Below are positions 4,766-31,679 of a DNA stretch of 32,000 nt, in pieces (the stretch's first letter is position 1; the number at the start of each line of letters is the position of its first letter). A program made the translations under genes and the position numbers. The DNA is from an uncultured Methanobrevibacter sp. GTDB lineage: Archaea; Methanobacteriota; Methanobacteria; Methanobacteriales; Methanobacteriaceae. The stretch lies in contig NZ_CAJOKH010000025.1 of the NCBI RefSeq assembly GCF_905235195.1, positions 2,852 to 34,851 of the forward strand. The letters are read 5' to 3'. The notes under the pieces were generated by a model. That model was not told the origin of the DNA, searched no databases, and worked only from the letters and a program-made list of their open reading frames with translations.

Positions 4766-7663
4766 TTATTGTTGTATTTTTTCATCAATTAATTCTTTTG
4801 CAAGGGGAGTAATATTTTCTTTTAAAATTTCTAATAAAAAGTCACCAGTATATGTACCTGATTTAGATACTTCTTCAGGGGTTCCTTGAGCAATGACTTC
4901 TCCTCCTCCATCTCCACCTTCAGGACCAAGATCTATAATATAATCTGCAGTTTTAATAACATCCAGATTATGTTCTATAACAACAATAGAATTGCCTTTA
5001 TCTGTAAGTCTATTTAAAACAGAAAGTAATCTTTTAATATCTGCAAAATGTAATCCTGTAGTTGGTTCATCTAAAATATATAATGTTTGACCTGTAGAGG
5101 ATTTTGATAATTCTTTTGCAAGTTTAATCCTTTGAGCTTCTCCCCCGGATAATGTAGTAGCAGGTTGACCTAACTTAAGATAACCTAATCCTACATCATA
5201 TAAAGTTTGTAGTTTATTTTTAATTTTTGGAATATTTTCAAAGAATTCTAAAGCTTCTTCAACTGTCATTTCAAGAACATCATATATATTTTTACCTTTA
5301 TAACGAATGTCCAAGGTTTCTTCATTATATCTTTTACCATGACATACTTCACAAGGAACATATACATCGGCTAAAAAGTGCATTTCAATTTGTATAATCC
5401 CATCACCTGAACATGCTTCACATCTACCACCTTTTACATTAAAACTAAATCTTCCAGGTTTATATCCTCGTGCTTTAGCTTCAGGAGTTTGTGCAAAAAG
5501 TTCTCTTATTGGTGTAAATAATCCTATATAGGTAGCAGGATTACTTCTAGGGGTCCTACCAATAGGTGTTTGATTAATAATTATAAGTTTATCAATATTT
5601 TCTGCTCCTTCAATTGTATCATGGTCTCCTGCAAATGCATATTTATGATCTAATATGCCTTTAAGACCCTTATATAATATCTGATTAATTAGGCTACTTT
5701 TACCTGAACCACTTACTCCGGTAACACAGGTAAATAATCCAAGAGGTATTTTAACTTCTATATCTTTAAGGTTGTTTTGTCTTGCACCTTTTATTGTAAC
5801 AAATTTACCATTACCTTTTCTTCTCTTTTCAGGTATTGGTATAAACTCTTTTCTAGAGAGATACCTGCCTGTTATAGATTCTTCTGAAGATAGAATATCT
5901 TGAGGAGTTCCTTGGGTAATAATACGACCACCATGTTCACCTGCACCAGGTCCTATATCGACAACATAATCTGCAGATAAAATGGTCTCTTCATCATGTT
6001 CTACAACAATCAAGGTATTTCCAATATTACATAAATGTTCTAGAGTTTGAATAAGTTTACGGTTGTCTCTTTGGTGTAATCCTATACTAGGCTCATCAAG
6101 AATATATAAAACACCTACAAGTCCTGAGCCTATTTGGGTTGCAAGTCTTATTCTTTGAGCTTCCCCTCCAGATAATGTTCCTGATGAACGTGCCATAGTA
6201 ATATAATCAAGACCTACATCTACGAGAAAACTTAATCTTTGATTTATTTCCTTTAAAACTTCACTTGCAATATATTCTTCCCGATCAGTCAATTCAAGAT
6301 TTTGGAAAAAATTATAGGAATCTTTGATTGACATTTCACAGACTTCTGCAATATTCATGCCTCCAACAGTTACAGCTAATACTTCAGGACGTAACCGTCT
6401 ACCATCACAAACAGAACATTTTCTATCACTCATAAATTTAGAAATATGTTTACGATTCCAGTTAGACTTAGTTTCAAAATATAATCTTTGAAGACGGATT
6501 ATAACTCCTTCAAAACGTCTGTTAACCATATATGTCCTATTTCTCCTATTTATATTAAATGGTATTCTGTCTTCGGAACCATATAAAATAATATCTTGAT
6601 TTTCTTTTGATAAATCTTTAAATGGTGTGTCCAATGAAAAATCATAGAATTCTCCAAGTGCCTGAAGCAATTGATTATAATAATTGTCTTTTTTATTTGA
6701 ATTACTCCATGGTACTATAGCTCCTTCATTAATAGATAAATTTTTATTTGGAATTACTAAATCTGGATCTATTTCCATTTTAGAGCCTATTCCTTTACAT
6801 TCAGGACATGCACCATGTGGTGAATTAAATGAAAACATACGAGGAGTTAACTCTTCAAAACTTAATCCACAATCTACACACGCAAAATCTTCGGAGTATA
6901 CTTTTTCATATTCTTCATCTTCTTTGGGAGTAAATAATACTTTTACAAGACCTTCTGAAAATTTACTAGCAGTTTCTAGAGAATCTGTTAATCTTCTTTT
7001 AAAATCAACAGTATTTCTAATTTTTAACCTATCTACAACAATATCTATTGTATGTTTAAAGTTTTTCTTAAGTTCAATATTTTCTTCAAGGTCTCGTATT
7101 TCACCATCAACACGTGCTCTAACAAATCCCTTTTCTCTAAATTCATCAAAGACCTGTCTGTGTTCTCCTTTACGGTCTTTAATAATTGGAGATAAAACCT
7201 GGATTTTAAGACCTTCTCCTTCTTCCATTATTGTTTCTGCAATTTGTCCTATTGTTTGCTGTGATATTTCACGACCACAATTTGGACAATGAGGTATACC
7301 AATGCGGGCAAAAAGCAATCTTAAATAATCATAAATCTCTGTAATTGTTCCAACTGTACTTCTAGGATTTACTCTTGTAGTTTTTTGATCTATTGATATA
7401 GCTGGAGATAGACCTTCTATGTAATCTAATTCTGGTTTGTCCATCTGTCCTAAAAATTGTCTTGCATAACTAGATAATGACTCTACATATCTACGTTGTC
7501 CTTCAGCATAGATAGTATCAAAAGCAAGTGATGATTTACCTGAACCACTTAAACCTGTTACTACAATAAATTCATCACGTGGAATGTTTAAGTCAATGTT
7601 TTGCAGGTTATGTTCTCTTGCACCTTTTATAATAATTTCCCTTTTATTTGAGTCTTTACTCAT
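4766..7663 (-). CDS. uvrA: Excinuclease ABC subunit A
   Basis: A 965-aa ORF. It has two ABC ATPase modules ([14 protein letters not shown] and [12 protein letters not shown] Walker A; two LSGGEAQR signatures; YILDEP Walker B twice) plus zinc-finger Cys clusters (CPNCG, CVDCG...CPECKG, CEAC...CEVCHG). Confidence 0.97.
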
Positions 7664-7899: not shown

Positions 7900-9855
7900 T
7901 TAATTAATTAAACCTTTAAGTTGAACAATTTCATCTCTTAAAAGTGCTGCCTTTTCAAAATCTAAATCATTAGCAGCTTCATGCATATCCTTCTCTAAAT
8001 CTCTTATTAATAATTTGATTTCATCTTTAGGTAAACGTTTAATTTCTGAAATCTTTTTAACTTTAAGATCTTGTTTTTTCTCTTTTAATGTTCTTTCTGT
8101 AGATTTAGGAGTAATATTAAATTTTTTATTATAAGCCATTTGTATAAAACGTCTTTTATCTGTAATATCTTTAGCATTTTTTACAGAATCAGTCATCTCA
8201 TCGGCATACATTATAACCTGACCATAAACATTACGTGCTGCTCTACCAATAGTTTGAATAAGAGAAGTTTCACTTCTTAAAAATCCTTCCTTATCAGCAT
8301 CTAAAATAGCAACAAGAGATACTTCAGGTAAATCAAGCCCTTCTCTTAAAAGGTTAACTCCAACCAATACATCAAAAGACCCACGTCTTAATTCATCAAT
8401 AATTTCAATACGTTCTAATGTATCGACTTCAGAATGTAGGTAATGAACTTTAATACCAATTTTTGCATAATAATCAGTTAAATCTTCTGCCATACGTTTG
8501 GTAAGTGTAGTTACAAGTACACGTTCATCACGTTCAGCTCTTTTTTTAACTTCACCAAGTAAATCTTCAACTTGACCCTTAACTGGTCTTATAATAACCT
8601 CAGGGTCAACCAGGCCTGTTGGTCTTATAATTTGTTCTGTAACATTAAGACTTCTTGAAAGTTCATAGTTACCAGGAGTAGCTGATATGTAGATAACCTG
8701 ATTTACAGAATCCTCAAATTCATTAAATTTAAATGGGCGATTTTCTTTTGCAGAAGGCAATCTGAAACCATAATCAACAAGAGTCTGTTTACGAGCCTTA
8801 TCTCCATTATACATACCTCTAATTTGAGGAACTGTTACATGTGATTCATCAATTATAGTTAAAAAATCATCTGGAAAATATTTTAGTAATGTATAGGGCA
8901 TATCTCCCCAGTTACGACCTGATAAATGCATAGAATAATTTTCTATTCCTGGACAATAACCCATCTCTTGTAGCATTTCCATATCAAAACGAGTTCTTTG
9001 CTCTAATCTTTGTGCTTCTAAATACTTACCTTCCTGGTTTAAATTCTTTAATCTTGAATCAAGTTCTTCATTTATATCCTTTAGGGCTTGTTCCATTCTA
9101 TCTTGACCTACAATAAAATGCTTTGCAGGAAATAAAGTATATCTTTCAAGAGATTCTTTTTTTTTCTTAGTTACAGGATCAATCAATGATATGCCATCAA
9201 TTTCATCACCAAATAGTTCTATCCTAATAGGACTAGTACCATCAACAGGATTAATTTCGATTACATCCCCTCTAACACGAAATTGTCCTCTTTCAAAAGC
9301 CATATCATTACGTTCATATTGCAGATAAATTAATCTGGATAAAATATATGCTCTATCATATTCATCTCCAATTTGAAATGGAAAAGCAAATTCACCATAA
9401 TCTTGAGGTGAACCTATACCATAAATACAACTTACACTACTTACAACTATAACATCATCACGTGAAAGAAGTGACTGTGTAGCAGAATGACGCATAATAT
9501 CAATTTCTTCATTTATTGATGCTTCCTTATCAATAAATGTATCACTTCTTGGAACATATGCTTCTGGTTGATAATAGTCATAATAACTAACAAAATATTC
9601 TACAGCATTTTCAGGGAAAAATCCTTTAAATTCTTCATATAATTGAGCAGCTAAAGTTTTATTATGAGATATTACAAGTGTTGGTTTTTGAACTTTTTTA
9701 ATAACATTTGCCATTGTAAATGTTTTTCCAGAACCTGTTACACCAAGTAAAGTCTGCTCATGTAAACCTTTATTAATCCCACTAACAAGGGAATCAATTG
9801 CTTTTGGCTGATCACCTAATGGCTTAAAAGGCGAATGTAATTTAAATTCTTTCAT
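7900..9855 (-). CDS. uvrB: Excinuclease ABC subunit B
   Basis: A 651-aa ORF with [10 protein letters not shown] Walker A, IIDESHVT (DExH), the helicase C-terminal motifs ([41 protein letters not shown]) and the C-terminal UVR domain ([13 protein letters not shown]). Confidence 0.97.
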
Positions 9856-10537: not shown

Positions 10538-13231
10538 TTATTTATTTTTTAGTTCTTCATACAAATCTCTTGCATCTGTATGGGATGGATTTATAGTTAA
10601 AGCTTTTTTTAAAAAGCTTTTAGCACCCTCTATATCCTTCTGTTCATTTAATATATCTCCAAGTAAATACCATGCATTTGAATAATTATTATCTATATTA
10701 ATTATTTCAACCAAAATATCTTTGGCCTTAGAATAATGGCCCATATCATATAATTGTAAAGCTTCAACATATTTGTTTTCTACTTCTCTAAATTCATGAT
10801 CTATAGATTCTTGAATTTGATTAAATAAATCTTCATTTGTATTTACATTAAGTGTATTTCTTTTTAAATTTTTATTTAACTCATCTATATCATCATATAC
10901 TATTATGTCTTCTTTTTTATCTGAAAGATTAGTAAATATATAATCAAGAACATATTTTGTAGCATTTTTATTTAATGGCTTATTATCATTTCCACATTTT
11001 GGAGAATATATACATTTAGGACAACCATCTTCACACTCACATGTATCAAGCAATTGTTTTGTAGATTTAACAAGTTCATAGAATACATCTATTGCTTTTT
11101 CACTAATACCTATTCCACCTTCAAATGCATCATAAATAAATATTGTAGCAGTTTCTGTATCTTTATGGAAATTTGTAGACATTCCTCCAATATCAAATCT
11201 ATCACACATAGTATGAAGTGGAAATAAACCGATAAGTGCATGTTCTGCACCGTGAAGACCGCCAGCAAATACCTGTTTATTATCAGGATATTTTTCTTCT
11301 AATTCATCTTTTAATTTCTCATCAACAGTAAACCACAATCCTTTTGTTTTAAATTTTAATGGAGGTAAATCAAGTTTGTATTGGCCTATAAGTTTGGAGA
11401 AATGTATTTTATTATATTTTTTAAAGTTTTCAATAACCTCTAAAAGACCAAAATGTACTGTAAAATCTCCAATTTTAATTTTTTTATATTTTTCAAGTAT
11501 ATTAATGTCCGTATCTTTTAAAACATTAGTATGATATTCAACGTTTTTCTTAATAACATTAACAAAGTTTTTTTCAAAGTTTACACTTCTTACTATATAG
11601 GTTTCACTTTGATGAATTAAAACTGCACCTTCATATGCTTCTGAGTAGACCTGTGCTAATTCCATTGTTTCAATTAATTTTCCATCACACATAATCATAA
11701 ACATATTATTTGACAATTGATCTAAGGAATGATTAAATGAGGGACTATCATTTGAAGTGTAATAATACTGATTTTTTAGATTTTTTTCAATATACTGATT
11801 TTGTGATAATTCTTTAAGTATAAATTTAGTTTCATTTTTATTTAATTCTGGTGAAAAGTCATGTAATTCCTCTTCTCTAAGAGGTAATTCATTTGCTGCA
11901 CATATAAGATGGGCATTTAAAAGAATTTCATTTTTTAAATCTACAATTGCATTTTCATGACTTCTTCCAAAGAAAAATTCAGGATTTTTCATAAAATATT
12001 GGTCTAGTTGGTTTTCAAAAGCAACTAAAATAACAAGGGATTTTTCTGCTCCACGACCACAACGACCTCCTTGTTGCCATACAGAAACCATGGTTCCAGG
12101 ATAACCTGATATTATAACTGCATCTAATGTACCAATATTTATTCCAAGCTCCAAGGCATTTGTAGTTGTTACTCCTAAATATTTCCGTGACTTAAGACCA
12201 TTTTCTATCTCACGTCTATCTTCAGGAAGATAACCTGCACGATATGCTGTAATTCTACTTGTTAATTTACTTTTATATTCTGTCATATCATTTTTAGCCC
12301 ATAAAGCAATTAATTCTGCAGTTTTACGTGAAACAGTAAAACATAAAGTTTGTATGTTTTTCAAAAGTAAAAATAAGAAAATAAATTCTATTTCCTGATG
12401 GAAACTAGGTTCGTTTTCTTTATTACGTTTAGTCCTTTTAAAAGTTTTATAAGGATTATATAAAATAAAATCTTTCTCACCACTAGGAGATGAATCATTT
12501 GAAATTAACTCAAATTCACATCCTGTTAATTTATATCCATGTTCTAGAGGGTTTGCAAGTGTTGCAGAGGATAATATAAACTGTGGATTAGACTTATAAA
12601 AGTTACATATACGTTTAAGTCTACGAATTAAAAGTGCAACATTACTTCCAAAAATACCCTTGTAATAATGAGATTCATCTATAACAATATATTTTAGATT
12701 AGAATAGAATCTCTTCCATTGATGATGCCATGAAAGAATGTGGTGCAATTGATAAGGATTAGTTAAAACAATTCGTGATTTTTGTCTTATTCCATACTTC
12801 TCATCTTTAGGAGTATCTCCATCGTAACATGCAGGGTTAATTTCTATACCCATTTCCTTTTCATAATTTTTAAGGACTTGAACTTGATCGTTTTCAAGTG
12901 CTTTTGCAGGATAAATATATAATGCTGTTGCTTGTTCATCTTCTATTAATTTATTTAAAACAGGTAAATTAAAACATAAGGTTTTTCCACTAGCTGTGGC
13001 TGTTGTAACTATAATATTCTTACCTTCACGAACCATTTCATATGATTCTGCCTGATGAACATATAAACTAATATTCTTTTCGTTCAAATATTCAAGAATA
13101 ATATCATTAAGACCATTAACTTTTTTATAACTAGCATCATGAGAAGGAATGGTTTCTATATATTCTATTTTCTTTTTAAATCGAATATCATTCTTAAATT
13201 TGTCAATTTGTATATCAGCCATATTATCCAT
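10538..13231 (-). CDS. DEAD/DEAH-box SF2 helicase with C-terminal DUF1998 metal-binding Cys cluster (MrfA/YprA, COG1205-like) fused to C-terminal TPR repeats
   Basis: An 897-aa ORF with helicase motifs TATASGKT (I), VIDESHYY (II, DExH), SSAT (III) and QQGGRCGRG (VI). The Cys cluster CECEDGCPKCIYSPKCGNDNKPLNK is typical of DUF1998. The last ~70 aa (YDMGHYSKAKDILVEII..NAWYLLGDIL...AKSFLKKALTINPSH) look like TPR repeats. Confidence 0.85.
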   Translation of the reverse strand: MDNMADIQIDKFKNDIRFKKKIEYIETIPSHDASYKKVNGLNDIILEYLNEKNISLYVHQAESYEMVREGKNIIVTTATASGKTLCFNLPVLNKLIEDEQATALYIYPAKALENDQVQVLKNYEKEMGIEINPACYDGDTPKDEKYGIRQKSRIVLTNPYQLHHILSWHHQWKRFYSNLKYIVIDESHYYKGIFGSNVALLIRRLKRICNFYKSNPQFILSSATLANPLEHGYKLTGCEFELISNDSSPSGEKDFILYNPYKTFKRTKRNKENEPSFHQEIEFIFLFLLLKNIQTLCFTVSRKTAELIALWAKNDMTEYKSKLTSRITAYRAGYLPEDRREIENGLKSRKYLGVTTTNALELGINIGTLDAVIISGYPGTMVSVWQQGGRCGRGAEKSLVILVAFENQLDQYFMKNPEFFFGRSHENAIVDLKNEILLNAHLICAANELPLREEELHDFSPELNKNETKFILKELSQNQYIEKNLKNQYYYTSNDSPSFNHSLDQLSNNMFMIMCDGKLIETMELAQVYSEAYEGAVLIHQSETYIVRSVNFEKNFVNVIKKNVEYHTNVLKDTDINILEKYKKIKIGDFTVHFGLLEVIENFKKYNKIHFSKLIGQYKLDLPPLKFKTKGLWFTVDEKLKDELEEKYPDNKQVFAGGLHGAEHALIGLFPLHTMCDRFDIGGMSTNFHKDTETATIFIYDAFEGGIGISEKAIDVFYELVKSTKQLLDTCECEDGCPKCIYSPKCGNDNKPLNKNATKYVLDYIFTNLSDKKEDIIVYDDIDELNKNLKRNTLNVNTNEDLFNQIQESIDHEFREVENKYVEALQLYDMGHYSKAKDILVEIINIDNNYSNAWYLLGDILNEQKDIEGAKSFLKKALTINPSHTDARDLYEELKNK

Positions 13232-13447: not shown

Positions 13448-13645
13448 ATGACTGGGAAAAAACTATATCGTTCATATGATAATAGAATGCTTGCTGGTAT
13501 ATGTGGAGGAATAGGAGAATACTTAAATATAGACCCAACCATTATTAGATTAATAACTGCTTTATTAATTTTTCTATGGGGTTTCGGTATTATATTTTAC
13601 TTATTAGCTTGGATAATTGTTCCAAACGAAATTGACATAGTTTAA
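13448..13645 (+). CDS. PspC-domain membrane protein
   Basis: A 65-aa ORF. LYRSYDNRMLAGICGGIGEYLNIDPTIIRLI followed by one TM helix (LLIFLWGFGIIFYLLAWIIVP) matches the PspC-domain signature. Confidence 0.8.
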   Translation: MTGKKLYRSYDNRMLAGICGGIGEYLNIDPTIIRLITALLIFLWGFGIIFYLLAWIIVPNEIDIV

Positions 13646-13755
13646 TCAATAATTTATAATAAATTTAAATATTAATATACAGATTAAATATAATACTATT
13701 TTTTTACATAATATTTAAAATAATAATCAATTATATTTCTAAATAAGGATTTAAT

Positions 13756-16210
13756 ATGATAAGTTATGATGAATTTGAAAAAATTGTTGTAGAAATTCTT
13801 AAAAGAGATATTTCTTCAAATCAAGATCAAAAATCAGCTATTGAATCTGATTTGAATAAATCTCTTTTTATTGTAGCAGGTCCTGGTTCTGGTAAAACTA
13901 CTGTTATTGTACTTAAAATTTTAAAATATATTTTTGTTGATGGAATTGAACCAGAATCAATTATTGCCACTACTTTTACCCGTAAAGCTGCTGATGAGAT
14001 AACAAGCAGAATCCTAGATTGGGGATATAAAATAAAAGACTATCTTTTAAGAAATCTTTTAGAATATAATATGGAAAATGATGATTTAAGAAAAATTGCC
14101 CATATTGATTTTAATCTAATTATAACTGGAACAATTGACAGTGTTGCAACAGAACTTATAAAGGTTAATCGTGAAGCAGGTACAAATTTACCTAATTGAA
14201 ACATATGTTGCACAATCTGCAATGACCAATATTGGCGTATATGCAAATGATAGATATTTAAATAAAGACCTCCAGGAATATGTAGGAGAATTTTTCGAAT
14301 TTACAGATGCAATTAAAAATCCATCAGAAATTGCAAAAATGATACTGTCAATTAGAGAGAAAATGTATTATAATATGGTTGATTTTGATGATGCATTTAG
14401 CGATATATCAGACCCTGGTGAAAATATTATAAGGGATGCTATACTTGATTATGAAAAAGAATTAAAATCAAGAAATACTATTGATTTTCCAATGTTAGAG
14501 TCCTTATTTTTAGAAAAACTTGACAGTGAAAAGTTCAAATCTTATCTTGATAATATTAAACTAATTCTTGTAGATGAATATCAGGATACTAATCTTTTAC
14601 AGGAAAAAATCTATTTCAAGCTTGCAAGGGATGTTATTAAAAATGGAGGAAATATTACTGTTGTAGGTGATGATGACCAATCATTATATCGTTTTAGAGG
14701 TGCTACTGTAGATTTATTTACTAATTTTCCTATTCGTGCAAAAAAACAATTAGGTATTGATATAAAAGAGGTTAATCTTAAGGATAATTACCGTTCAACT
14801 GAAAACATTATTAATCTATGTAATCATTTTGCTTCATTAGATGAAGAATATCAAAATGCACGTGTATCACATAAACCCCCAATTAAATGTCCAAATACAA
14901 ATGAGGAAAAAAACATACCTATCATTGGACTTTTTAGACCTAGTCCTCAACTTTTAAGTCGTGACTTAGCTATTTTTATAAGTGAATTAATTACAAAAGG
15001 AACTGTCAAAAGAGAAGTAAAATCAATAGTTGATACAAAATCATTTAAACTCATAAATAAAAGTGAAGATAATGATGAATTAATCAAAAAATCAAAATTA
15101 TTTGATATGAATAAAATAAAGGATAAACAATATATTGAAATTAGTTTGGATAAAAATAATGGTTCTCCTAATGATATTGCATTTTTAACATATTCACCAA
15201 AAGAAAATACGGCTTCACATAAAAATAAATTTACATATTATCTTAGGAAAAATTTACAAAGACGTAAAATTGAAGTATTTAATCCTAGAGGTAAAGAAAT
15301 TCATGACATTGAATCTGTTAAAATATTCTGTGGCCTTATCCTTGAATGTATAGATCCTGATAGAAAAATAGAAAAACAAGATAAATCCATCCCTCTTTCA
15401 GCTATTAGATATATGAAAAAATGGAGAGAATCTGCACAAAAATTTATAGATAAAGACCCAGAACCAAATGAACCTATAAGTATAAAAAGTTTTGTTGAAC
15501 ATTGGCAGTTAAGAAGACCATACAATCTTAAAAAATGGCCAAATAATACTAGACTAATGGATCTTGCATATAAATTAATTACTTGGATAGATTCACTTCA
15601 AGATGATATTGAAGGCCTTGTATACCTACAGGCAATATGTCAAACAATTACTCAAACCGGATTTTTCAATGAATATGGTTCTACCATATACTTTGACAAT
15701 CCTACAAAAGAACAGAAATCAATAGATGAATTATACTGGAATATTTTTATACCTATTGCAAATGGAGGAATAAAAATTGATGAAGAATTATTTGAAACTT
15801 TACCTAATGACAGATTAAATATTATGAGTATTCATCAATCAAAAGGATTAGAATTTCCAATGGTTATTGTTGATGTAGGTAGTGAATATAAAAAAGATTT
15901 GAAACGTACCAGTTATCAAAGATATCCTTATAAAGGCGGAGGAGATTTTGAGCTTGAAGATAGAATTCGAAAATACAATAATGACTTTGAAATAAAAAAT
16001 AGAGAACAACTTGACCGTTCATTTGATGATTTGATTAGACGTTATTTTGTTGCATTCTCAAGAGCTCAAGATGTTTTAATACTAATTGGATTAGATACAT
16101 GTATATATGGATATGATATGGAAGATAAACATAAAACAATTCCAAACATTGCTTTAGGTTGGAATAGGAATAAAGAATTCATAGGTTTTGATGAGATATA
16201 TATGATTTAA
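13756..16210 (+). pseudogene. UvrD/PcrA/Rep-like SF1 helicase, split by a single-nucleotide frame change at ~14185-14200 (ORFs 13756-14199 and 14171-16210)
   Basis: The N-terminal ORF carries motif I (AGPGSGKTT) and Ia (TFTRKAADE). The second ORF, shifted one nucleotide forward (needing a +1 shift), carries II (LVDEYQDTN), III (VVGDDDQSLYRFRGA), IV (NYRST), V (SIHQSKGLEFPMVIV) and VI (YFVAFSRAQDVLIL). The two overlap by 29 nt, and the first ends at TGA 14197-14199. An AAGGA lies just upstream of ATG 13756. Confidence 0.85.
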
Positions 16211-16213
16211 TTA

Positions 16214-16320
16214 ATCATAAAATTAATTTAATTATATCTATTGGATATGTTAAAAAAACTTATTTATTAATTTCTATCATAAAATTATTTAAATATATTA
16301 TTTAAAATGTTAAAAAAAAA
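16214..16320. repeat. Two imperfect ~45-bp direct repeats (period 62 bp) in the helicase-nuclease intergenic region
   Basis: 16214-16258 reads atcataaaattaatttaattatatctattggatatgttaaaaaaa. 16276-16320 reads atcataaaattatttaaatatattatttaaaatgttaaaaaaaaa. Confidence 0.6.
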
Positions 16321-16539
16321 TAATTTTATTTCAAACAAATCCAATAAAATAAAATAAAATTAATATAATTAATTATTAAATTCATTAAAATAAGTAATTA
16401 AATAAATAATATGACAATCAATAATAAAATTTAAATTAATAAAAATATAAAATAATCAAATTATCCGAATTATTAAGTATATAGAATTATTAGATTTTAA
16501 AAGTAAATAAAAATTCGAAAAAATATTATAAGGTGGATT

Positions 16540-17841
16540 ATGAATATAAAATCAAGATCTAAACCATATTTTATACCAGAATATAGTCTTACAGGGGATC
16601 TATTATCCTTTTTAACATGTAACTTACAGTACAGGTATCAAAATAAAGGAACTTTACCTCCATCAATGCCTATCCAATTATGGTTTGGAGAATTTATACA
16701 TGGAGTTATGGAAGAAGCATTTCTTAAATGGGAAGCTGAAAAAAAAGAATTTCCTTGGAATTGGGAATTAGATATAAGGCCAATAGAAGAAATGATCGAT
16801 CAAAGATTAAGATCAAGAGGATTAAATTCTCCACCAAAACAATTCTGTCCTGAACATTTACCAGAAGAGAAAATTGGAAAATATAAATTAGAGGATAATC
16901 CATATCATAGAATTGCTAGTGCAAGAGCTGAAAAAGCAATTAATATTTGGGGTAAAGACATATTTCCACTTATTAAATCTACTGAATTATTGATTAAAGG
17001 TATAAGAGATATGCCTAATTATGATGAAAAATTAAGTCGCTCTAATCATTATGGTATAAATGGTGTAATAGATGGATTAATATCTGTAACCCCTCAGGAT
17101 ATAAAAAATATCACAACTACACTTTTAAATAATAATAATCAAGACCATAATATATTAGAATCTGATATAGACAAACAAAAATCTCTTGATTTATTTGGTA
17201 TTGAAACTAATGAAAATACAGATACAAACCATTTCCTTGAATTGTTAAAAGAAACTCCTCAAGTTAAAGAATATTTAAGCAATAATAAATTAGATGAATT
17301 TGAAATAATAATAGATTATAAAGGAATGAAAAGGCCATCTGTTAATAGTGAAACATTTCAACACCATAAATGGCAAGTATTAACTTATTCTTGGCTCAGA
17401 TGCCAACAAAAAGATGCAAAAGAAATACCTGCAGGAATAATATTATATTTAAATGAACTTGTCCCTTCAACTATGGATTTAATTGCAATTAAAGAAGACA
17501 TAATTAATGATAAAAATGATGTTAAAATTTCTAAAAAAGATATGGATTCTTTATTTGAATGGGACGGCAGTGAAAAATATTATCCTACTTTATCTGATGA
17601 ATTTAGAATTAACCGTTCTATTAGAATTATTCCAATCAATAAACAGGAACAGGATGAAGCGCTTTTAAGTTTTGATAAAGTTGTAAATAATATTGAATCA
17701 TCTCTTATTAAAGAACAAAATGGATGTAAAATATCAAAATCATGGATTGGAAAAGCAGATAAAAGAACTTGTGATGCATGTGATTTTAAAATGATTTGCC
17801 AAAAAAACAAAGGTGAACTTGATGATATTACAGTCCCCTAG
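16540..17841 (+). CDS. PD-(D/E)XK nuclease of the Cas4/AddB (RecB-like, 4-Cys Fe-S) type
   Basis: A 433-aa ORF with a strong SD-like AGGTGG at 16531-16536. The motifs occur in Cas4 order: N-terminal Cys (FLTCNLQY), GxxxH (FGEFIHG), D (INGVIDGLI), DxK (IIIDYKGMK), QxxxY (WQVLTYSW) and C-terminal CxxCx5C (CDACDFKMIC). Large insertions include an Asn/Asp-rich low-complexity linker (TTLLNNNNQDHN...NENTDTNH). Confidence 0.75.
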   Translation: MNIKSRSKPYFIPEYSLTGDLLSFLTCNLQYRYQNKGTLPPSMPIQLWFGEFIHGVMEEAFLKWEAEKKEFPWNWELDIRPIEEMIDQRLRSRGLNSPPKQFCPEHLPEEKIGKYKLEDNPYHRIASARAEKAINIWGKDIFPLIKSTELLIKGIRDMPNYDEKLSRSNHYGINGVIDGLISVTPQDIKNITTTLLNNNNQDHNILESDIDKQKSLDLFGIETNENTDTNHFLELLKETPQVKEYLSNNKLDEFEIIIDYKGMKRPSVNSETFQHHKWQVLTYSWLRCQQKDAKEIPAGIILYLNELVPSTMDLIAIKEDIINDKNDVKISKKDMDSLFEWDGSEKYYPTLSDEFRINRSIRIIPINKQEQDEALLSFDKVVNNIESSLIKEQNGCKISKSWIGKADKRTCDACDFKMICQKNKGELDDITVP

Positions 17842-17948: not shown

Positions 17949-18635
17949 TTATTTTTTTTGTTTATTATCTTTAGTATTCACATCTTTTTTATCATTAACT
18001 TCATAATCTACATCAATTGAATCGTCATTTGATTTATTTTCTTCTTTCATTTCAGAAATATCTTTATAGACAATTTTTACAGTTTCTTTAACATTATTTT
18101 TAGTATTTCTAGCTTCTTCAATATATTCGTCTTTCTTAGCTTTTAATATTTCTTCTGCAGCTTCTCTTTTAACTTTAAGTTTTTCTATTTTAATTTTTAA
18201 AGCTTCTTTTTGTTCTTGTGATTGTTTTCTTTGAAGTTCAAGTATTTCAGCTTTATGTTTTGATATCAATTCATCTCTTTCGATTTTTTGTTTTTTTCTT
18301 AAAGATAATTCAACATCTTCCTCTTGTGGTGATTCTGGGAAGTTTTCATCTGCATAATCAATTGCATTTTTTAATTGGTCCTTAACATATTCTTTTCCTT
18401 TAGAAAATGAATCTTCACCATTTTTTACTTCTTCTAATTTAGAATTTGCTTTATCTAAAGTTTCATCCATAAATTGATTTGCTTTATCATCAGCAATAAC
18501 AGCGTATTTTTTTCCTAACTCTTTAGTAAGAGTTTTAAATTCATCGTCATCAAATTGTTTAATTCTTTCATTACCATATTCATATACAACTTTACCAATT
18601 TTTAAACTTTTTTTTGTAAGTCTTGATAATATCAT
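17949..18635 (-). CDS. Coiled-coil protein, unknown function (paralogue of the upstream gene, with an extra Lys/Glu-rich C-terminal extension)
   Basis: The track ORF extends to 18644 via GTG. ATG at 18635-18633 is preceded by AGGTGA, which directly abuts the TAA stop (18648-18646) of the upstream gene and shares its final A, so I prefer that start. The N-terminal ~100 aa align by eye with the 140-aa neighbour (L.K.L..G...Y.Y...R.K...D.E...LT..L........KA....D......KLEE.K...DSFS..K.....L..A.D.AD). The rest is predicted coiled coil. Confidence 0.6.
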   Translation of the reverse strand: MILSRLTKKSLKIGKVVYEYGNERIKQFDDDEFKTLTKELGKKYAVIADDKANQFMDETLDKANSKLEEVKNGEDSFSKGKEYVKDQLKNAIDYADENFPESPQEEDVELSLRKKQKIERDELISKHKAEILELQRKQSQEQKEALKIKIEKLKVKREAAEEILKAKKDEYIEEARNTKNNVKETVKIVYKDISEMKEENKSNDDSIDVDYEVNDKKDVNTKDNKQKK

Positions 18636-18645
18636 TTTCTTCACC

Positions 18646-19068
18646 TTATTTATTTTTATTTTTTAAATCCTTTAATTCTTTTGCTTGTTTATTTTTTAAA
18701 TCTTCTAATTCTTTAATTTGCTTTTTCATAAGTTCATATTCTTCATCTACAGATCCCCCATTGTATGAATCCAAATAGTAATCTGCCTTGTCAACTGCAT
18801 CTTGAAGTTGAGCTTTCCTCTGGGATTTTCTAATTGAAAAAGAATCCTTACTTGATTTAGCTTCTTCTAATTTAAGGGTCGACAATTCAATTGCCCTATC
18901 CAAAGCATGATCTGCTTTAAGTTCTCCAATTTGTATCCATTTCATTGTTAAATCATTAGTTAATCTAATCATTTCAGGATCACTTAGAGACTTAAGTCTT
19001 TGATAGCCATAAGAGGATAAATTTTTTCCAAGAACTAAACTTTTATTTATTTTATTAAAAATTCCCAT
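18646..19068 (-). CDS. Coiled-coil protein, unknown function (starts MGIFNKI...)
   Basis: A 140-aa ORF and the first gene of a two-gene unit with the 17949-18635 paralogue. The C-terminus has a repeated KELEDLKNKQAKELKDLKNKNK heptad-like sequence. Confidence 0.6.
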   Translation of the reverse strand: MGIFNKINKSLVLGKNLSSYGYQRLKSLSDPEMIRLTNDLTMKWIQIGELKADHALDRAIELSTLKLEEAKSSKDSFSIRKSQRKAQLQDAVDKADYYLDSYNGGSVDEEYELMKKQIKELEDLKNKQAKELKDLKNKNK

Positions 19069-19404: not shown

Positions 19405-20019
19405 TTAAAGTTCGATGCTTTGGAATTTTAAAATTGCCATCTTACCAGCAGTTGTTAAGACTAGTTCCTTTGGATTAATATAACCTGAATGTCTCAAATC
19501 TTTTATATGGTTATAAACCATACTGGAAGATAATTCGGTTTTTTCTGAAATGTCTTTAACATTATCTGCACCTTCATTAATATAAAGGAGAATTTTAACC
19601 TTATTTTTTGAAATATTATAATCAAATATTGGTAAATCAACTATTTCTTCATTTTTAGGATCTAATATTGTTAGTTTATAAATATCTTTAATAAATGAAC
19701 ATGATGCATAAGATAATGCAATAGATTCTATAGAGTTATTTTCAATTAAATGTACAATAACATCATTTTTCTCTTTTATTTCTGTTGAAATAATATTAAA
19801 TGTTTGTGAAGCAATAGTTAATATGTCTTTATTAGATATCTCTTTAATTTTTATTTTTAAATGTCGTCCTCTTTTTTTATATAATTCTTCCATTATATCT
19901 TTAATTTCAGGATAATTTTTATTATCTGTTAATAATACAATAGTTTCAGGTTCAAATTTATCTACAGCTAATAATAATGATTTTAAATCAAATATAGTGG
20001 AAATTAAACTAATGGTCAT
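19405..20019 (-). CDS. Putative transcriptional regulator: N-terminal Rossmann-like (possibly Csa3/CARF-like) domain + C-terminal winged HTH
   Basis: The track ORF starts at GTG 20028, but that GTG is part of an AGGTGA SD-like box 5 nt upstream of ATG 20019-20017, so I prefer the ATG. The C-terminus (ILLYINEGADNVKDISEKTELSSSMVYNHIKDLRHSGYI) is a clear ArsR/MarR-style wHTH. The N-terminal ~130 aa alternate short hydrophobic strands and helices (TIVLLTD, IKIKEI, VIVHLIENNSIESIALSYA, KLTILD), the same architecture and size as Csa3. Confidence 0.55.
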   Translation of the reverse strand: MTISLISTIFDLKSLLLAVDKFEPETIVLLTDNKNYPEIKDIMEELYKKRGRHLKIKIKEISNKDILTIASQTFNIISTEIKEKNDVIVHLIENNSIESIALSYASCSFIKDIYKLTILDPKNEEIVDLPIFDYNISKNKVKILLYINEGADNVKDISEKTELSSSMVYNHIKDLRHSGYINPKELVLTTAGKMAILKFQSIEL

Positions 20020-20174
20020 ATTTATCACCTAGGCAAATATATTATTAAAATCAAGAGTCCATTCCAATATTGAAAATTTAAAAAAAATAAATTATCATAT
20101 TTTAAATAAATCATTATCAGATGTATTTAATTTTATAATTCTTTTAAAAGAGATGTAAAAAAAATATTATAAAA

Positions 20175-20768
20175 CTATAAACTTAAAAGTATTTTAGCTG
20201 CATTATTTAATTTTAATGAATCTTTTTCAATAAAACCTACTTCTCTTAAATCTCTAATATGATTGTAAACCATACTATGACTACGATTTACAGATTTTGA
20301 TATATCTTCAATAGTATTTTTTCCATCTTCTATATTTCTTAATATAACTTTTTTAGCATCAGATAGCTTAAAATCAAACAATGGTAAATATATTATTTTA
20401 TGAAGATTAGTATCATACATTATTACAGATTTAATAATATCTTTATTATAACATGTAGCATAGTATAATGCATTATTTAACATAAAATTTTCAATATTTA
20501 ATTTTACTACTATATTAGAAGATTTTTCAGCCTCTTTTATTATAAATTCTGAAATTTCTTTACATGAGACCTTTAAATCTAAATTTTCTACATTTAAATT
20601 AAGTATATTTATATCTATATTTTCAAAAATCGGGTCAGTTTCTAAATTTAGCAAATTAATCTCTTTATTAGAAACGAGGATTAATTTTTTAATATTATAC
20701 TCTTCTGTAATGTTTGAAATATCATCTAATTTTGTTTGAGTAGAAACAATGGTAATTTCATTTAACAT
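20175..20768 (-). CDS. Paralogous putative regulator: Rossmann-like (possibly Csa3/CARF-like) N-domain + C-terminal wHTH
   Basis: A 197-aa ORF with the same architecture as 19405-20019. Shared stretches include LPLFDFKLS/LPIFDYNIS, K.IL..I..G....DIS......SMVYNHI.DLR..G(F/Y)I, and an internal (V/I)V(K/H)L(N/I)IEN / LIENN segment. Confidence 0.55.
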   Translation of the reverse strand: MLNEITIVSTQTKLDDISNITEEYNIKKLILVSNKEINLLNLETDPIFENIDINILNLNVENLDLKVSCKEISEFIIKEAEKSSNIVVKLNIENFMLNNALYYATCYNKDIIKSVIMYDTNLHKIIYLPLFDFKLSDAKKVILRNIEDGKNTIEDISKSVNRSHSMVYNHIRDLREVGFIEKDSLKLNNAAKILLSL

Positions 20769-20914: not shown

Positions 20915-21285
20915 TTGAATACCTCAAAATAAGCTATTGTTAATTTATATATTAATAAATAAATTAGATATAACTATAGTTAATTTAAAGGCCTGTAATT
21001 TTATATATTTTCAATCAATCAAAAAATATACCGCTTTATTGTAGTAATAAATTAAAATTTATTTTAAATCAATACAAAAATATAATAGCTTATTGCAACT
21101 ATATTAAAATTTATTATAAAATCAATCCAAAAAATATACCTCTTTATTGAGTAATAAATTAAAATTTATTTTAAATCAATCTAATAAATATATGGCCTAT
21201 TGCAACTATATTTAAATTTATTTTTAATCAAACTATAAAAAAAACTTCTTTATTAAGTATTATTTTAAAAATATTATATATTTTT
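20915..21285. repeat. Intergenic tandem repeat array, ~52-54 bp period, two alternating unit flavours (higher-order ~107 bp unit)
   Basis: U1 (21015-21068): tcaatcaaaaaatataccgctttattgtagtaataaattaaaatttattttaaa. U2 (21069-21121): tcaatacaaaaatataatagcttattgcaactatattaaaatttattataaaa. U3 (21122-21175) is nearly identical to U1. U4 (21176-21227, ...tatggcctattgcaactatatttaaattt...) is closest to U2. Degenerate units flank the array on both sides. Confidence 0.8.
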
Positions 21286-25493: not shown

Positions 25494-25910
25494 ATGTTTG
25501 AAGAAGAAAAAGATGAAAAAATATATAATCTCTTAATTTCAAGAGGTGAAAGTGATGCTAATGATCATAAGCAATTTTATGAAAAATTATATTCTAAAAC
25601 TGATTTTCTATGGAAAGAATCAGTAGCTGCATCTTACAGCCATATGCCAGAAAGTTTTTTTAAAAAAATAGATACTATTATCATACTTAGTGGTGTTTAC
25701 AAACAAAATAAAGAAGAAATAGATGATATTATAAATGCTTCCAAACATTATGATATACCAATAGTACTTGTAAGGCCTTATGGTGTAGAAGAAGTTCCTG
25801 AAAATTTAGAAGATGTTGCAACTACAATTATTGGATGGAATGCCAATTGTATTGTAGATGAGATAAAAAATGTTGTAAATGGAGAATATGATGAACTAGA
25901 TGATTTCTAA
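25494..25910 (+). CDS. Small TIR-like domain protein (MTH538/DUF1863-like), acidic termini
   Basis: A 138-aa ORF with the beta-alpha pattern of the MTH538 TIR-like family (Pfam DUF1863). It reads strand IYNLLISRGESDAND, then TIIILSGVY..NKEEIDDII..A, then PIVLVRPYG...VP, then IIGWNANCI. The assignment is by pattern memory, not a search. Confidence 0.45.
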   Translation: MFEEEKDEKIYNLLISRGESDANDHKQFYEKLYSKTDFLWKESVAASYSHMPESFFKKIDTIIILSGVYKQNKEEIDDIINASKHYDIPIVLVRPYGVEEVPENLEDVATTIIGWNANCIVDEIKNVVNGEYDELDDF

Positions 25911-26028: not shown

Positions 26029-28812
26029 TTAATTTATATCATCAGTACTAATTTCAGAATTTCCCTGTTTTTTAACTACTTTAATTATATTGTCAGCTGC
26101 ATTTTCTAATTCTTCATCATGTGTAACAATTATCATTTGAGGAAGTGTAGACATTTTTCTAAGTAAGTCTATAAGTTCTCCTCTTCTATAACTATCAAGA
26201 TGAATTGTAGGTTCATCTAAAAGAATTGTTTCCATTGCACCATTACTCATGGCCTTAGTAATACCAAGTCTAAGTGCAAGTGCAATAGCTATTTTTTCAC
26301 CCCCACTTACCATATTTAAGCTTGATTCTCCTTCCGGACCATATAATGTTACATTAAACTCATCATCTAAAATAAGACTTGAATAATCAAAATTAAATTC
26401 TTCAAAGAAATCCTTAGTATACTTTTGAATAGTAGGTCGTGATAGTTTTCTTAAATCTTCTTGAAGGCCATCTTTTGAAAAGAGTTCTCTTATATTTTCT
26501 AAGAATTGTATATAATCTTTTACATTTTTATAGTCTTCTTCAAGAGTATTATATTCATCCTCTAATTTTTGAAGAGATTCTATTGATTCTTCAATAGTTT
26601 TTGATTCACCTTCTAATCTAGATTTATCATTGTTAATTTTTAATCTATTATCTTCTATACTTGCAAGTTGCAATACAAGGGCATTATATTTTTCATCATC
26701 ATATTTAATCGATTTAATTGCTTCTTTATATTTTAAAAGATTTTTTTCATTTTCGCTGAGAGTTTTTTTCTTATTTTCTAATTTTGATTCAACTGATTCT
26801 TTAACTTGAATTGTTCCCTTAAGTTCACGATAATTTGCAACTTTATCTTCCAAATCTTGAATTTTACTGTTTATATCTTCAAGTTCCATGTCTGAATTTA
26901 AACCACTGTCTTTACTCATAGCAAGTTTAATAATATTTACTTCATGGTCTTGATCATCATTTAAAAGCTTGATTTTATTTTCAATTTGGTTTAATGGAGG
27001 AAGAAGTTCTATTGCTCCTTTTGCCTTAATATATTTATTGTAGCCTTCCTTAGATAAATTACGTCTATCTGTTTCTATTTGAATATTTTCATTTATTTTA
27101 TCTAAATCTACATTATTAACTTTATTAGAATTACTTTCCTTTTCAAGTGTTTCTAATTTCTTTTTTAACTCAACAATTCTTTCTATTAAATAAGAATTAG
27201 AGGATATATTTTTCTCAATTAAGGAAAGATTATTTATTTTTTCTTTAATTTCACTTTTTTCAGATTCAAGTTTTTCAATATCCTCTTTATTTTTCTTAAT
27301 ATTATTTGTAGAATTGATTATAGCATTTTTATAGGAATTTTTTAAATCAATTTTTTTCATATTAGAAATAGTTGATTGACATATCGGACATTTATCACCT
27401 ACAGACTCTAGTTCTTCTAAAATATTTTCACTTTGAGATATAATCTGATGATACTGTGAGTCTTTTGAGCTTTTCTTTGAAATTAACTCATCTATACCTA
27501 TAATTTTTTCTTCTAATTCTTCAATTCTTTTTATAATCAATTCACTGATTTGACCTAAATCCTCATTATCATTTTTTAAACTAATATTATTTTCTTTTAA
27601 ACTGTTAAATAATTCAGATTGAAATTTATTGAATTTTTCATTTTCTTTTTTATATTCTTCTTCTACTATCTCTAGATCTTTTGTAATCTTTTCATAAACT
27701 TTAATTTCACTATTCATTTTAGATTTTTCTTCTTTTAAATCATTAATAATAGTTTCAAGACGGTTATAATCATTATAAATTTGTTCGTTTTCTTTTAAAA
27801 TATTATTTTGATAAATAAAACTTTCTTTTTGTTTATTTAACTCTTCTTTCTTTTGGGTAATATCCATGATTTTCAAATAGGCTTGCCTAAATTCTTTATA
27901 GATAGGTAATCTATCTAAATATTTACCAAGTCTTAATACTTCAGATTCATTTTTTCTAATATCATCAAGTTGTGTTTGAAGTTCTGATTTTTCTTGTTTT
28001 AAACGTTCAATATCGTTTAAACTTGTTTCAATCATATTTTTATAATTAATATACTCATCTTTATTAGCTTCTAAACTTAATTTTTTAGTATTTATATCTT
28101 TATAAAGTATCTCTATTTGATTTAACTCTTCTTGAATTTTTATAAGTTCAGTAGATAAATTATCATATTTTGATTGTTTATCTTTAAGTTCTTTAGTATT
28201 TTCATCTTTTCTAGATAATTTACCCCTATATTCAGATTCTAATTTTTCATAATCTGAGATAAATTTTTTAATATTAGTCCATGATTTTTCAAGAGAATCT
28301 ATACCTAAAAGTTTTCCTATAAGTTTTTTCTTCTCAGAAGGAGTTTTACTAATAAGTTCTGCAATTTCTCCTTGACGAACATAAATAGCATTTAAAAACA
28401 AGTCTGCATCCATCTGTAAAATATTTTCAATTTCATTATTTACACTTCTATCTCCTTCACATATCATAGTATTAACATAATTAGACTTGTCATGATTTAA
28501 TTGTTTATAATATAATTTTGCATGTGATATAGATTTTTCCTTAGATCTTGTAACCTTATAGTGATTACCATTAGATATGAACTCTAATGTAACTTCCATA
28601 TTATTAAGAATTGTTTTATCATTAGATGTTCTAATTAAATCTGATATTTTATTAGAAGAATGTTGTTTAAATAATGCAAAACTAATAGCCTCTAAAATAG
28701 TAGACTTACCTGCACCATTTTCACCGATTATAAGAGTAATACCTGGATTAAATTGAATTTTAGTATTTAAATAACTTTTAAAATTTTTGAGTTCCAACTT
28801 TTCAATAATCAT
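26029..28812 (-). CDS. rad50: DNA double-strand break repair ATPase Rad50
   Basis: A 927-aa ORF with Walker A GENGAGKST at the N-terminus, a very long coiled coil, a central zinc hook CPICQ, the C-terminal signature SGGEKIAIALALRL and Walker B ILLDEPT. The ATG directly follows the mre11 TAG stop, and a GGTGAT SD lies within the mre11 3' end. Confidence 0.95.
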   Translation of the reverse strand: MIIEKLELKNFKSYLNTKIQFNPGITLIIGENGAGKSTILEAISFALFKQHSSNKISDLIRTSNDKTILNNMEVTLEFISNGNHYKVTRSKEKSISHAKLYYKQLNHDKSNYVNTMICEGDRSVNNEIENILQMDADLFLNAIYVRQGEIAELISKTPSEKKKLIGKLLGIDSLEKSWTNIKKFISDYEKLESEYRGKLSRKDENTKELKDKQSKYDNLSTELIKIQEELNQIEILYKDINTKKLSLEANKDEYINYKNMIETSLNDIERLKQEKSELQTQLDDIRKNESEVLRLGKYLDRLPIYKEFRQAYLKIMDITQKKEELNKQKESFIYQNNILKENEQIYNDYNRLETIINDLKEEKSKMNSEIKVYEKITKDLEIVEEEYKKENEKFNKFQSELFNSLKENNISLKNDNEDLGQISELIIKRIEELEEKIIGIDELISKKSSKDSQYHQIISQSENILEELESVGDKCPICQSTISNMKKIDLKNSYKNAIINSTNNIKKNKEDIEKLESEKSEIKEKINNLSLIEKNISSNSYLIERIVELKKKLETLEKESNSNKVNNVDLDKINENIQIETDRRNLSKEGYNKYIKAKGAIELLPPLNQIENKIKLLNDDQDHEVNIIKLAMSKDSGLNSDMELEDINSKIQDLEDKVANYRELKGTIQVKESVESKLENKKKTLSENEKNLLKYKEAIKSIKYDDEKYNALVLQLASIEDNRLKINNDKSRLEGESKTIEESIESLQKLEDEYNTLEEDYKNVKDYIQFLENIRELFSKDGLQEDLRKLSRPTIQKYTKDFFEEFNFDYSSLILDDEFNVTLYGPEGESSLNMVSGGEKIAIALALRLGITKAMSNGAMETILLDEPTIHLDSYRRGELIDLLRKMSTLPQMIIVTHDEELENAADNIIKVVKKQGNSEISTDDIN

Positions 28813-29949: not shown

Positions 29950-30152
29950 GATATCCCTAAACAAAACTTTTTATAGTAAATTAAGTATTTAATTAAATAG
30001 TAATACAAAATAATTTAATCTCTAAAGAAATTTTCTAATTAAAAAATAAGAATAAATATAATAATTAAAATTTCTTGAAATTAATAATTAATTATAATTT
30101 TATTAAAATCTACATATAAAATTTATTAAACATATTATAGAATTTTAAATAT

Positions 30153-31400: not shown

Positions 31401-31623
31401 AAGATTTTTATCTAAGTTTCTCATATGAAAAAATCTAGCATCTTATATTTTTAAATTGTATTTTTTTTTAGAATGAATAATTAATGAGGTTCTAAATTAA
31501 TGAAATATCTTTGTGGAGTTAATATTTTTAATGTAAATTTCCAAAGGGCCTAAATTATTTTTAAGCACAAAAAATTAAGAAAATTAATCTTTTTTTTTAG
31601 ATTATAAGATTTTTAAAAAAATA

Positions 31624-31661
31624 GAAAAAAAATTAAGAGTTTATTATAATAAAACTCTTAA
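31624..31661 (-). terminator. Hairpin + oligo-T terminator-like element downstream of the adhesin-like gene
   Basis: A perfect 10-bp stem (31633-31642 ttaagagttt / 31652-31661 aaactcttaa) with a 9-nt loop. On the minus strand it is followed by T8 (complement of 31625-31632). It sits 19 nt after the stop at 31680. Confidence 0.5.
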
Positions 31662-31679
31662 AATATTATATAATTTTTT

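Follow-up and report, generated by a model that had tools for sequence, protein, structure and literature searches.

In the AddAB enzyme of Bacillus subtilis (PDB 3U44/4CEH), adjacent genes encode a UvrD-like motor of superfamily 1A (SF1A) and a RecB-family nuclease whose cysteine staple consists of one N-terminal cysteine and a CX2CX5C motif. A comparable gene pair lies on a 32,000-nucleotide stretch of contig NZ_CAJOKH010000025.1 from an uncultured Methanobrevibacter sp., the whole of which was analyzed here and is referred to as the window. The pair consists of a gene for a UvrD/AddA-like SF1A helicase (13756-16210) followed on the same strand by a gene for a Cas4/AddB-type PD-(D/E)XK nuclease (16540-17841). 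Unlike this pair, AddAB has a second nuclease at the C-terminus of AddA, whereas Pfam finds no nuclease domain in the window helicase, which scores only 103.9 bits on the AddA equivalog profile (cutoff 707.65). In AddB, a large N-terminal part resembles a helicase, is inactive and reads Chi, while the window nuclease is essentially equivalent to the nuclease module of AddB alone. Finally, the host of the window is an archaeon.

The nuclease also recalls Cas4, with which it shares the PD-(D/E)XK assignment, the order of the motifs and the four cluster cysteines. In contrast to Cas4, it is about twice as long, fails the Cas4 equivalog profile TIGR00372 (23.7 bits versus a cutoff of 65), lacks cas1, cas2 and a CRISPR array in its neighbourhood and is obligately partnered by a helicase. 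ACE1 (PDB 9IAB/9IAC) is likewise a stand-alone Cas4-family nuclease that is not tied to CRISPR, but it is Argonaute-associated instead of having a helicase partner and measures ~265 aa. Membership of the pair in Cas4 proper, canonical UvrD, AddAB and Gabija was considered and rejected, as a defining feature is missing each time. For Gabija, PADLOC returned partial GajB matches on the helicase fragments and no GajA among the open reading frames (ORFs) scanned against it. PADLOC matched the pair to no named defence system, which agrees with a preliminary description of this DNA, made from the sequence alone, that had been unable to match it to one.

Associations of this kind have already been catalogued, as Hudaiberdiev et al. 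(2017; PMC5704561) described both UvrD/Cas4-like and COG1205/Cas4-like links. In defence contexts, they found pfam12705 Cas4-like nucleases as fusions with UvrD. They also reported operons with separate UvrD and Cas4-like genes, chiefly from Clostridiales, for which a role in repair was suggested, and a link between COG1205 helicases and Cas4-like nucleases in bacteria and mesophilic archaea, for which defence was suggested. Judged by gene order, their arrangement (a pfam12705 nuclease adjacent to a COG1205 helicase with DUF1998, to a UvrD-like helicase not fused to it, or to both) is present in the window and 70 related loci, with the Cas4-like nuclease again outside CRISPR loci. The window joins all three genes, whereas that study treated the two links separately and reported neither a dpd context nor a rad50-mre11 neighbourhood. 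A literature search on Methanobrevibacter with UvrD and nuclease gave nothing relevant, and we found no published description of the obligately paired family or of its fixation with COG1205 near rad50-mre11 across Methanobrevibacter.

The locus is real and represents a variant of the theme of a helicase coupled to a RecB-family nuclease. We read it as an AddAB-like split helicase-nuclease operon that acts on DNA ends and has a role in chromosome repair in Methanobrevibacter, a reading whose chances we judge to be about even. Its molecular part taken alone, in which a linked SF1A helicase and an AddB-type nuclease act together on DNA, appears quite probable to us.

The nuclease and its helicase partner

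The nuclease gene (16540..17841, plus strand) encodes a protein of 433 aa that matches PF12705 (PDDEXK_1) with 41.5 bits against a cutoff of 22, as do 57 of 58 members of its family. This profile match places it inside the PD-(D/E)XK/Cas4 superfamily. The preliminary description had ascribed to the protein a full Cas4/AddB signature, and all of its elements are indeed found in the order given there: a motif around C27 (16615-16638), GEFIHG (G50-x3-H54; 16687-16704), the D178 motif (17062-17076), IIIDYKGMKRP (D259-Y-K261; 17305-17337), QVLTYSWL (Q279-x3-Y283; 17374-17397) and CDACDFKMIC (C411-x2-C414-x5-C420; 17770-17799), all on the plus strand. In alignments of 16, 28 and 58 relatives, the widest of which reaches down to 27% identity, each of these named residues is invariant or at least 90% conserved. 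Three of the cysteines (C27, C411, C414) do not vary in the 58-sequence alignment, and the fourth, C420, is conserved in at least 90%. A CX2CX5C motif combined with one N-terminal cysteine is reportedly the spacing of the cluster ligands in AddB. The four conserved cysteines most likely hold a 4Fe-4S cluster.

An AlphaFold model of the nuclease built on the 58-sequence alignment has a predicted local distance difference test (pLDDT) score of 86.7. When the model was compared with the PDB using Foldseek, the AddB chain of AddAB was the top match (E 2e-5, probability 1.0), with a template modelling (TM) score of 0.39-0.41 on the query and 0.17 on the target. It was followed by ACE1 (TM 0.55-0.64 on the target), AddA, Exo5, MGME1, RecB and Cas4. 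Sequence searches of the PDB with the nuclease gave no significant match.

The protein had been described as about twice the size of Cas4, with two large insertions. The large size is mostly typical of the family, whose members usually measure 390-410 aa, and the bulk comes from at least three expansions instead of two. The Asn/Asp-rich low-complexity insertion noted earlier is real. It covers about residues 190-237 (17128..17250, plus strand), is lineage-specific, being confined in alignment A1 to the window nuclease and two relatives (P0001 and P0003), and forms the weak spot of the model with pLDDT values below 50 at residues 209-226.

The helicase gene is interrupted by a frameshift in the window. 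Its N-terminal fragment of 147 aa (13756..14199, plus strand; WP_295722353) matches PF00580 with an E-value of 7e-22 and its C-terminal part lies in the +1 frame on a 679-aa ORF (14171..16210, plus strand) matching PF00580, PF13361 and PF13538, within which homologous sequence begins at ~14195. According to Pfam, the N-terminal third of the UvrD-helicase domain falls on the shorter ORF and the remainder together with UvrD_C on the longer one. The complete set of SF1 motifs that had been described directly upstream of the nuclease on the same strand is present, although not in one continuous gene. The first ORF carries the Q motif (13819-13842) together with motifs I (AGPGSGKT; 13876-13899) and Ia (TFTRKAA; 13972-13992), and the second carries motifs II (LVDEYQDT; 14567-14590), III (14663-14704), IV (14777-14797), V (15827-15856) and VI (16043-16072), all on the plus strand.

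The break is due to a 5-bp deletion at 14192..14193. Compared to the closest relative (L001, 92% nucleotide identity), which has an intact 819-aa gene, the absence of TACTG after 14192 is the sole length difference, and the resulting frameshift creates the premature TGA that ends the 147-aa fragment. An exact-sequence look-up of the window nuclease retrieved two further assemblies, a 35,077-bp ENA contig and a Logan contig (L173 and L174), that are 100% identical to the window over 13448-17841 except for those 5 bp and that encode an intact 819-aa helicase (protein P0392). As two independent assemblies match apart from the 5 bp and have the gene intact, the break is private to one assembly. 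It reflects either a mistake in assembly or strain variation of very recent origin and is not a property of the organism. A programmed frameshift was also considered and rejected, since the relatives are all in frame, AAU-UGA is implausible as a +1 slippery site and identical DNA exists without the deletion. RefSeq lists the two halves separately as WP_295722353 and WP_295722354, each named 'UvrD-helicase domain-containing', meaning that the 147-aa and 679-aa helicase 'proteins' in the public record are pieces of one gene.

A model of the intact orthologous helicase (pLDDT 82.6) is matched about equally well by AddA (E 7e-23) and by UvrD, Rep and PcrA (~1e-22), followed by RecB and AdnB. The best sequence match in the PDB is UvrD1 of M. 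tuberculosis (E 2.5e-21). The helicase thus displays the full motif set and the fold of UvrD, PcrA and Rep, whereas its best partial scores on their equivalog profiles are 46-90 bits, with cutoffs at 911-1168. As an SF1A helicase it is divergent and falls far below every NCBIfam equivalog cutoff. With AddB as the best fold for the nuclease and AddA/UvrD for the helicase, the minimal AddAB-like logic proposed in the preliminary description holds up.

Linkage of the pair and its neighbourhood in Methanobrevibacter

Relatives of the pair were gathered as 80 loci from species-level genomes, 80 loci from metagenomes and additional look-ups; the species-level set represents the best 80 of 297 species genomes with a relative. 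The helicase gene is immediately upstream of the nuclease gene in 166 of the 168 related loci that have upstream sequence, so that the chance adjacency considered at the outset, in which the two genes would never be linked elsewhere, does not apply. Even for the most distant loci, full-length comparison of their helicases with the Methanobrevibacter one gives 33-45% identity, and therefore the two genes co-diverge. Their adjacency is meaningful and not due to chance. Overall, the pair constitutes a narrow family, represented in archaea as well as bacteria, whose two genes hardly ever occur apart. The nuclease family itself is small: a search of 1.84 billion cluster representatives yields 318 at E ≤0.001.

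As the median gap between the two genes is ~11 bp across the family, the pair is normally a tight operon. In the window the gap measures 329 bp (16211..16539, plus strand), close to the 330 bp noted before, and is the fourth largest of 166. This spacer has a G+C content of 9.7% and contains no ORF, repeat element or Rfam match, and its similarity to sequences elsewhere is of low complexity only. The Shine-Dalgarno-like site AAGGTGGA is located just ahead of the nuclease ATG, as reported earlier. The partly independent expression deduced from these features is not borne out by the family comparison, since it depends on a long spacer that is specific to the lineage.

All of the best 80 species-genome matches belong to Methanobrevibacter or other Methanobacteriaceae with the exception of one contig labelled 'Bacteroidaceae bacterium' (L009; CAVDAS010000079.1). 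It carries a locus of Methanobrevibacter type whose COG1205 helicase, UvrD-like helicase and nuclease are 55-61% identical to those of the window, and it is probably mis-binned.

Just upstream of the pair, the window encodes a divergently transcribed DEAH helicase of 897 aa (10538..13231, minus strand). It is COG1205/YprA/MrfA-like (TIGR03817, 703 bits), and its further features are the Zn-binding domain of MrfA and, at the C-terminus, TPR repeats. A COG1205 helicase occupies this position in 70 loci, corresponding to most of those with enough upstream sequence. Pairwise distances for the nuclease, the helicase and the COG1205 helicase correlate with r 0.91-0.95 over 55 loci (0.91-0.92 for the COG1205 helicase versus the pair), and thus the three proteins have been inherited as a block. 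A patchy distribution, which the preliminary description had proposed to look for, is not what we see in Methanobrevibacter, where the pair is inherited vertically together with the COG1205 helicase.

Downstream of the pair lie rad50 (26029-28812) and mre11 (28813-29964), forming an operon on the minus strand. Of 54 loci with a flank of 7 kb or more, 49 have a rad50 gene downstream, at a median distance of 4.4 kb, with an NTP-transferase gene and Mur-ligase genes standing between the pair and rad50-mre11. No herA or nurA was found beside rad50-mre11 in the window.

The window contains no cas genes and no CRISPR array, confirming what had been stated for cas1, cas2 and the array, and it also contains no tRNA and no Rfam match. 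However, two tandem genes for regulators with CARF and winged helix-turn-helix (HTH) domains are located 1.5-3 kb downstream of the nuclease (19405-20028 and 20175-20768, minus strand). They are Csa3-like, as evidenced by PADLOC matches to CARF3 (E 1.8e-41 and 2.4e-24), CasR and Csa3. Of 94 Methanobacteriaceae-type loci, 12 have a CARF-HTH gene at ~1-5 kb from the nuclease, as do five loci of the sister clade, and such genes recur in early-branching lineages. It is possible that these genes regulate the locus, though the link is loose.

Possible roles of the pair

As we picture it, the intact 819-aa UvrD/AddA-like SF1A motor would load onto DNA at an end, a nick or a branch and translocate 3'-to-5' on ATP. 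Acting in a complex with the nuclease, it would pass the displaced strand on for degradation, which would amount to the AddAB logic cut down to one motor and one nuclease. The role of the pair in Methanobrevibacter would be chromosome maintenance, that is, end resection or the processing of damaged or branched DNA, and the pair was probably recruited from a module that elsewhere serves dpd (7-deazaguanine) or restriction-modification islands. We favor a chromosomal role because the pair is fixed, syntenic and vertically inherited, because it is under purifying selection, because it has no modification partner and because its neighbours on the two sides are an MrfA-like repair-type helicase and rad50-mre11. 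Relative to L001, dN/dS is 0.05 for the helicase before the break, 0.13 after it and 0.14 for the nuclease (0.075 for the neighbouring COG1205 helicase). A core repair operon with an already assigned function had been named as an alternative, and no assigned function was found for the pair.

Several observations weigh against a chromosomal role. Two Methanobacteriaceae loci have an intact nuclease without the upstream helicase (L006, 4256-5473, preceded by genes for PPDK-like and Pei proteins; L058, 2410-3609, preceded by sortase and PIG-L genes). The proximity to rad50-mre11 may be plain synteny, since cell-wall genes intervene and gene order is generally conserved in the genus, and COG1205 helicases are common in defence islands (PMC5704561). 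The genes uvrA (4766-7663) and uvrB (7900-9855), both on the minus strand, stand next to the COG1205 helicase gene upstream of the pair, and this adjacency is not conserved, as uvrB recurs in only two other loci and uvrA in none; we rejected it as functional evidence. Outside Methanobacteriaceae, the relatives, at 31-50% identity, occur in other contexts. Among 76 metagenomic and look-up loci without a COG1205 helicase, ~42 have a gene for a DpdA-like transglycosylase within 8 kb of the nuclease on the fetched flanks, most often immediately downstream of it, and a DUF6884 gene is present in 26, as a rule directly ahead of the helicase gene. In one such locus (L097), the gene downstream of the nuclease scores 416 bits on the NCBIfam DpdA equivalog, well above the cutoff of 200. 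Some other distant loci add dpdB and queC/D/E, and on a Bradyrhizobium plasmid the pair is beside dpdA, dpdB and queCDE as annotated by PGAP. In a further locus (L077), which belongs to the lineage closest to the Methanobrevibacter clade, the pair is flanked by a Dam/DpnII system on one side and a type IIG methyltransferase on the other, and hence lies in a restriction-modification setting. In a midpoint-rooted neighbour-joining tree without support values, the Methanobacteriaceae clade is monophyletic and nested among the dpd and restriction-modification lineages; as the tree carries no support values, it only suggests the direction of the change in context.

The main rival explanation is that the pair is an anti-virus or anti-plasmid effector in Methanobrevibacter too, a restriction-like helicase-nuclease that would break down foreign DNA together with the COG1205 helicase and might be switched on by the neighbouring CARF-HTH regulators. 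We regard it as possible but doubtful. In its favor, relatives form part of dpd cassettes and restriction-modification islands, among whose lineages the Methanobacteriaceae clade is nested, the COG1205 helicase matches the PADLOC models of SngC, DruE, BrxH and DpdJ, COG1205 plus Cas4-like links were read as defence by Hudaiberdiev et al. (PMC5704561), and two Csa3-like CARF regulators are nearby. The last of these points fits either role, because Csa3a of Sulfolobus activates DNA repair genes as well as adaptation genes (PMC5587795, PMC7515695). Against a defensive role, the window and the 82 related loci of Methanobrevibacter type contain no dpdA, dpdB, dpdC or methyltransferase gene, and without modification genes a means of self versus non-self discrimination is not evident. 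The stable synteny and vertical co-inheritance are unlike patchy defence islands, PADLOC yields only generic partial matches to GajB and Cas4, and the tree that places the clade among defence lineages is midpoint-rooted and lacks support values.

The neighbouring uvrA and uvrB could also indicate that the helicase is the UvrD of bacterial-type excision repair with the nuclease as an accessory, the more so as it is UvrD-like by Pfam and fold and as mesophilic methanogens carry bacterial nucleotide excision repair genes (PMC7776575). This is very unlikely, given that the helicase scores 72 + 46 bits on the UvrD equivalog (cutoff 1144), that the uvrA/uvrB adjacency is not conserved and that the nuclease is the obligate partner over 166 loci, including those of bacteria with a UvrD of their own. 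A further possibility, that the nuclease is a Cas4 serving in trans a CRISPR adaptation module at another genomic site controlled by the Csa3-like regulators, draws on the Cas4-like signature, on the two Csa3-like genes 1.5-3 kb away and on Csa3a of Sulfolobus, which activates adaptation and repair genes (PMC5587795, PMC7515695). With 23.7 bits versus 65 on TIGR00372, no cas1, cas2 or CRISPR array found in the window, a helicase and not cas1/cas2 as the constant partner and a CARF neighbour in a minority of loci, we find this highly improbable. The frameshift, the loss of the helicase in two related lineages and the enlarged spacer might suggest that the helicase is a pseudogene and the pair non-functional in the organism. 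We reject such decay, since two independent, otherwise identical assemblies carry the intact gene, dN/dS is 0.13 downstream of the break and all catalytic motifs are intact.

Within our preferred reading of a chromosomal end-processing pair, a comparison with HerA-NurA is instructive. HerA-NurA is likewise a two-gene helicase and nuclease unit near mre11-rad50, and the pair is a candidate for the same job where HerA-NurA is absent, as in Haloferax, which lacks both HerA and NurA (PMC7776575). The families are unrelated, though, HerA being a hexameric FtsK-like ATPase and NurA an RNase H-like nuclease, and the window-type pair lies ~4.4 kb from rad50-mre11 in a separate operon. For end resection in archaea without HerA-NurA, the pair near mre11-rad50 is a concrete candidate that is present genus-wide in the dominant human and ruminant gut methanogens. 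The boldest version of this idea, which we consider rather unlikely, is that mesophilic methanogens have in the pair their missing machine for end resection at double-strand breaks, an AddAB-like HerA-NurA substitute that works with Mre11-Rad50 and the COG1205 helicase and was domesticated from a compact dpdC-helicase-nuclease-dpdA module of other archaea and bacteria.

Contexts with dpd genes and other features of the window

Relatives at 31-46% identity are found between a dpdC-like (DUF6884) gene and dpdA, or beside dpdA, dpdB and queCDE, and in this respect they resemble parts of Dpd islands (dpdA-K). Such islands differ from the Methanobrevibacter loci in that neither the window nor any of the 82 loci of its type has a dpd-like gene, and their classical restriction genes dpdD-K include no pair of UvrD and PD-(D/E)XK proteins. 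DUF6884 is a domain of DpdC (bioRxiv 10.1101/2025.02.24.639861) and is related to YaaA (PMC11701544). The order DUF6884 (DpdC-like)-UvrD-like helicase-PD-(D/E)XK nuclease-DpdA forms a compact cassette on one strand, for example at L097:5162-10501. Cassettes of dpd type were observed in loci L089-L150, L084, L086, L087, L088, L169, L171 and L172, where dpdB is often absent and queC/D/E are sometimes added.

DpdA requires the ATPase DpdB, for which a helicase-like role has been raised (PMC10164549). Because DpdA needs this ATPase, cassettes that lack dpdB and contain a helicase are of interest, and in them the helicase may supply the ATP-driven DNA opening needed by DpdA. The nuclease/helicase family is apparently a core part of the compact dpd cassettes and could explain DpdA without DpdB; alternatively, it may form a new restriction arm of 7-deazaguanine systems. 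No description of a Dpd variant with the order dpdC-helicase-nuclease-dpdA was found in the searchable literature, and a search on dpdA together with UvrD or Cas4 gave nothing relevant.

The region is very AT-rich with a G+C content of ~25%. At the end of the window, ~2 kb (29965-32000) with 21% G+C contain no ORF exceeding 69 aa and neither a tRNA nor an Rfam match. The intergenic DNA that separates the NTP-transferase gene from the second CARF-HTH gene contains a tandem repeat (21006-21270), whose period can be taken as 54 bp (4.2 copies) or alternatively as 107 bp (2.5 copies) and which is not CRISPR-like. Downstream of the nuclease, 17949-19068 (minus strand) encodes two Lys/Glu-rich proteins of 231 and 140 aa that match no Pfam or PADLOC family, are probably coiled-coil and are conserved only in the closest relatives (L001, L003-L007). 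Beside rad50, a 138-aa ORF (25494-25910, plus strand) has a weak TIR-like (ThsB) PADLOC match with an E-value of 3.6e-6. Between the divergent helicase genes, a small membrane protein with a PspC domain (13448..13645, plus strand) is encoded in the window and its close relatives only, and this gene is probably a passenger.

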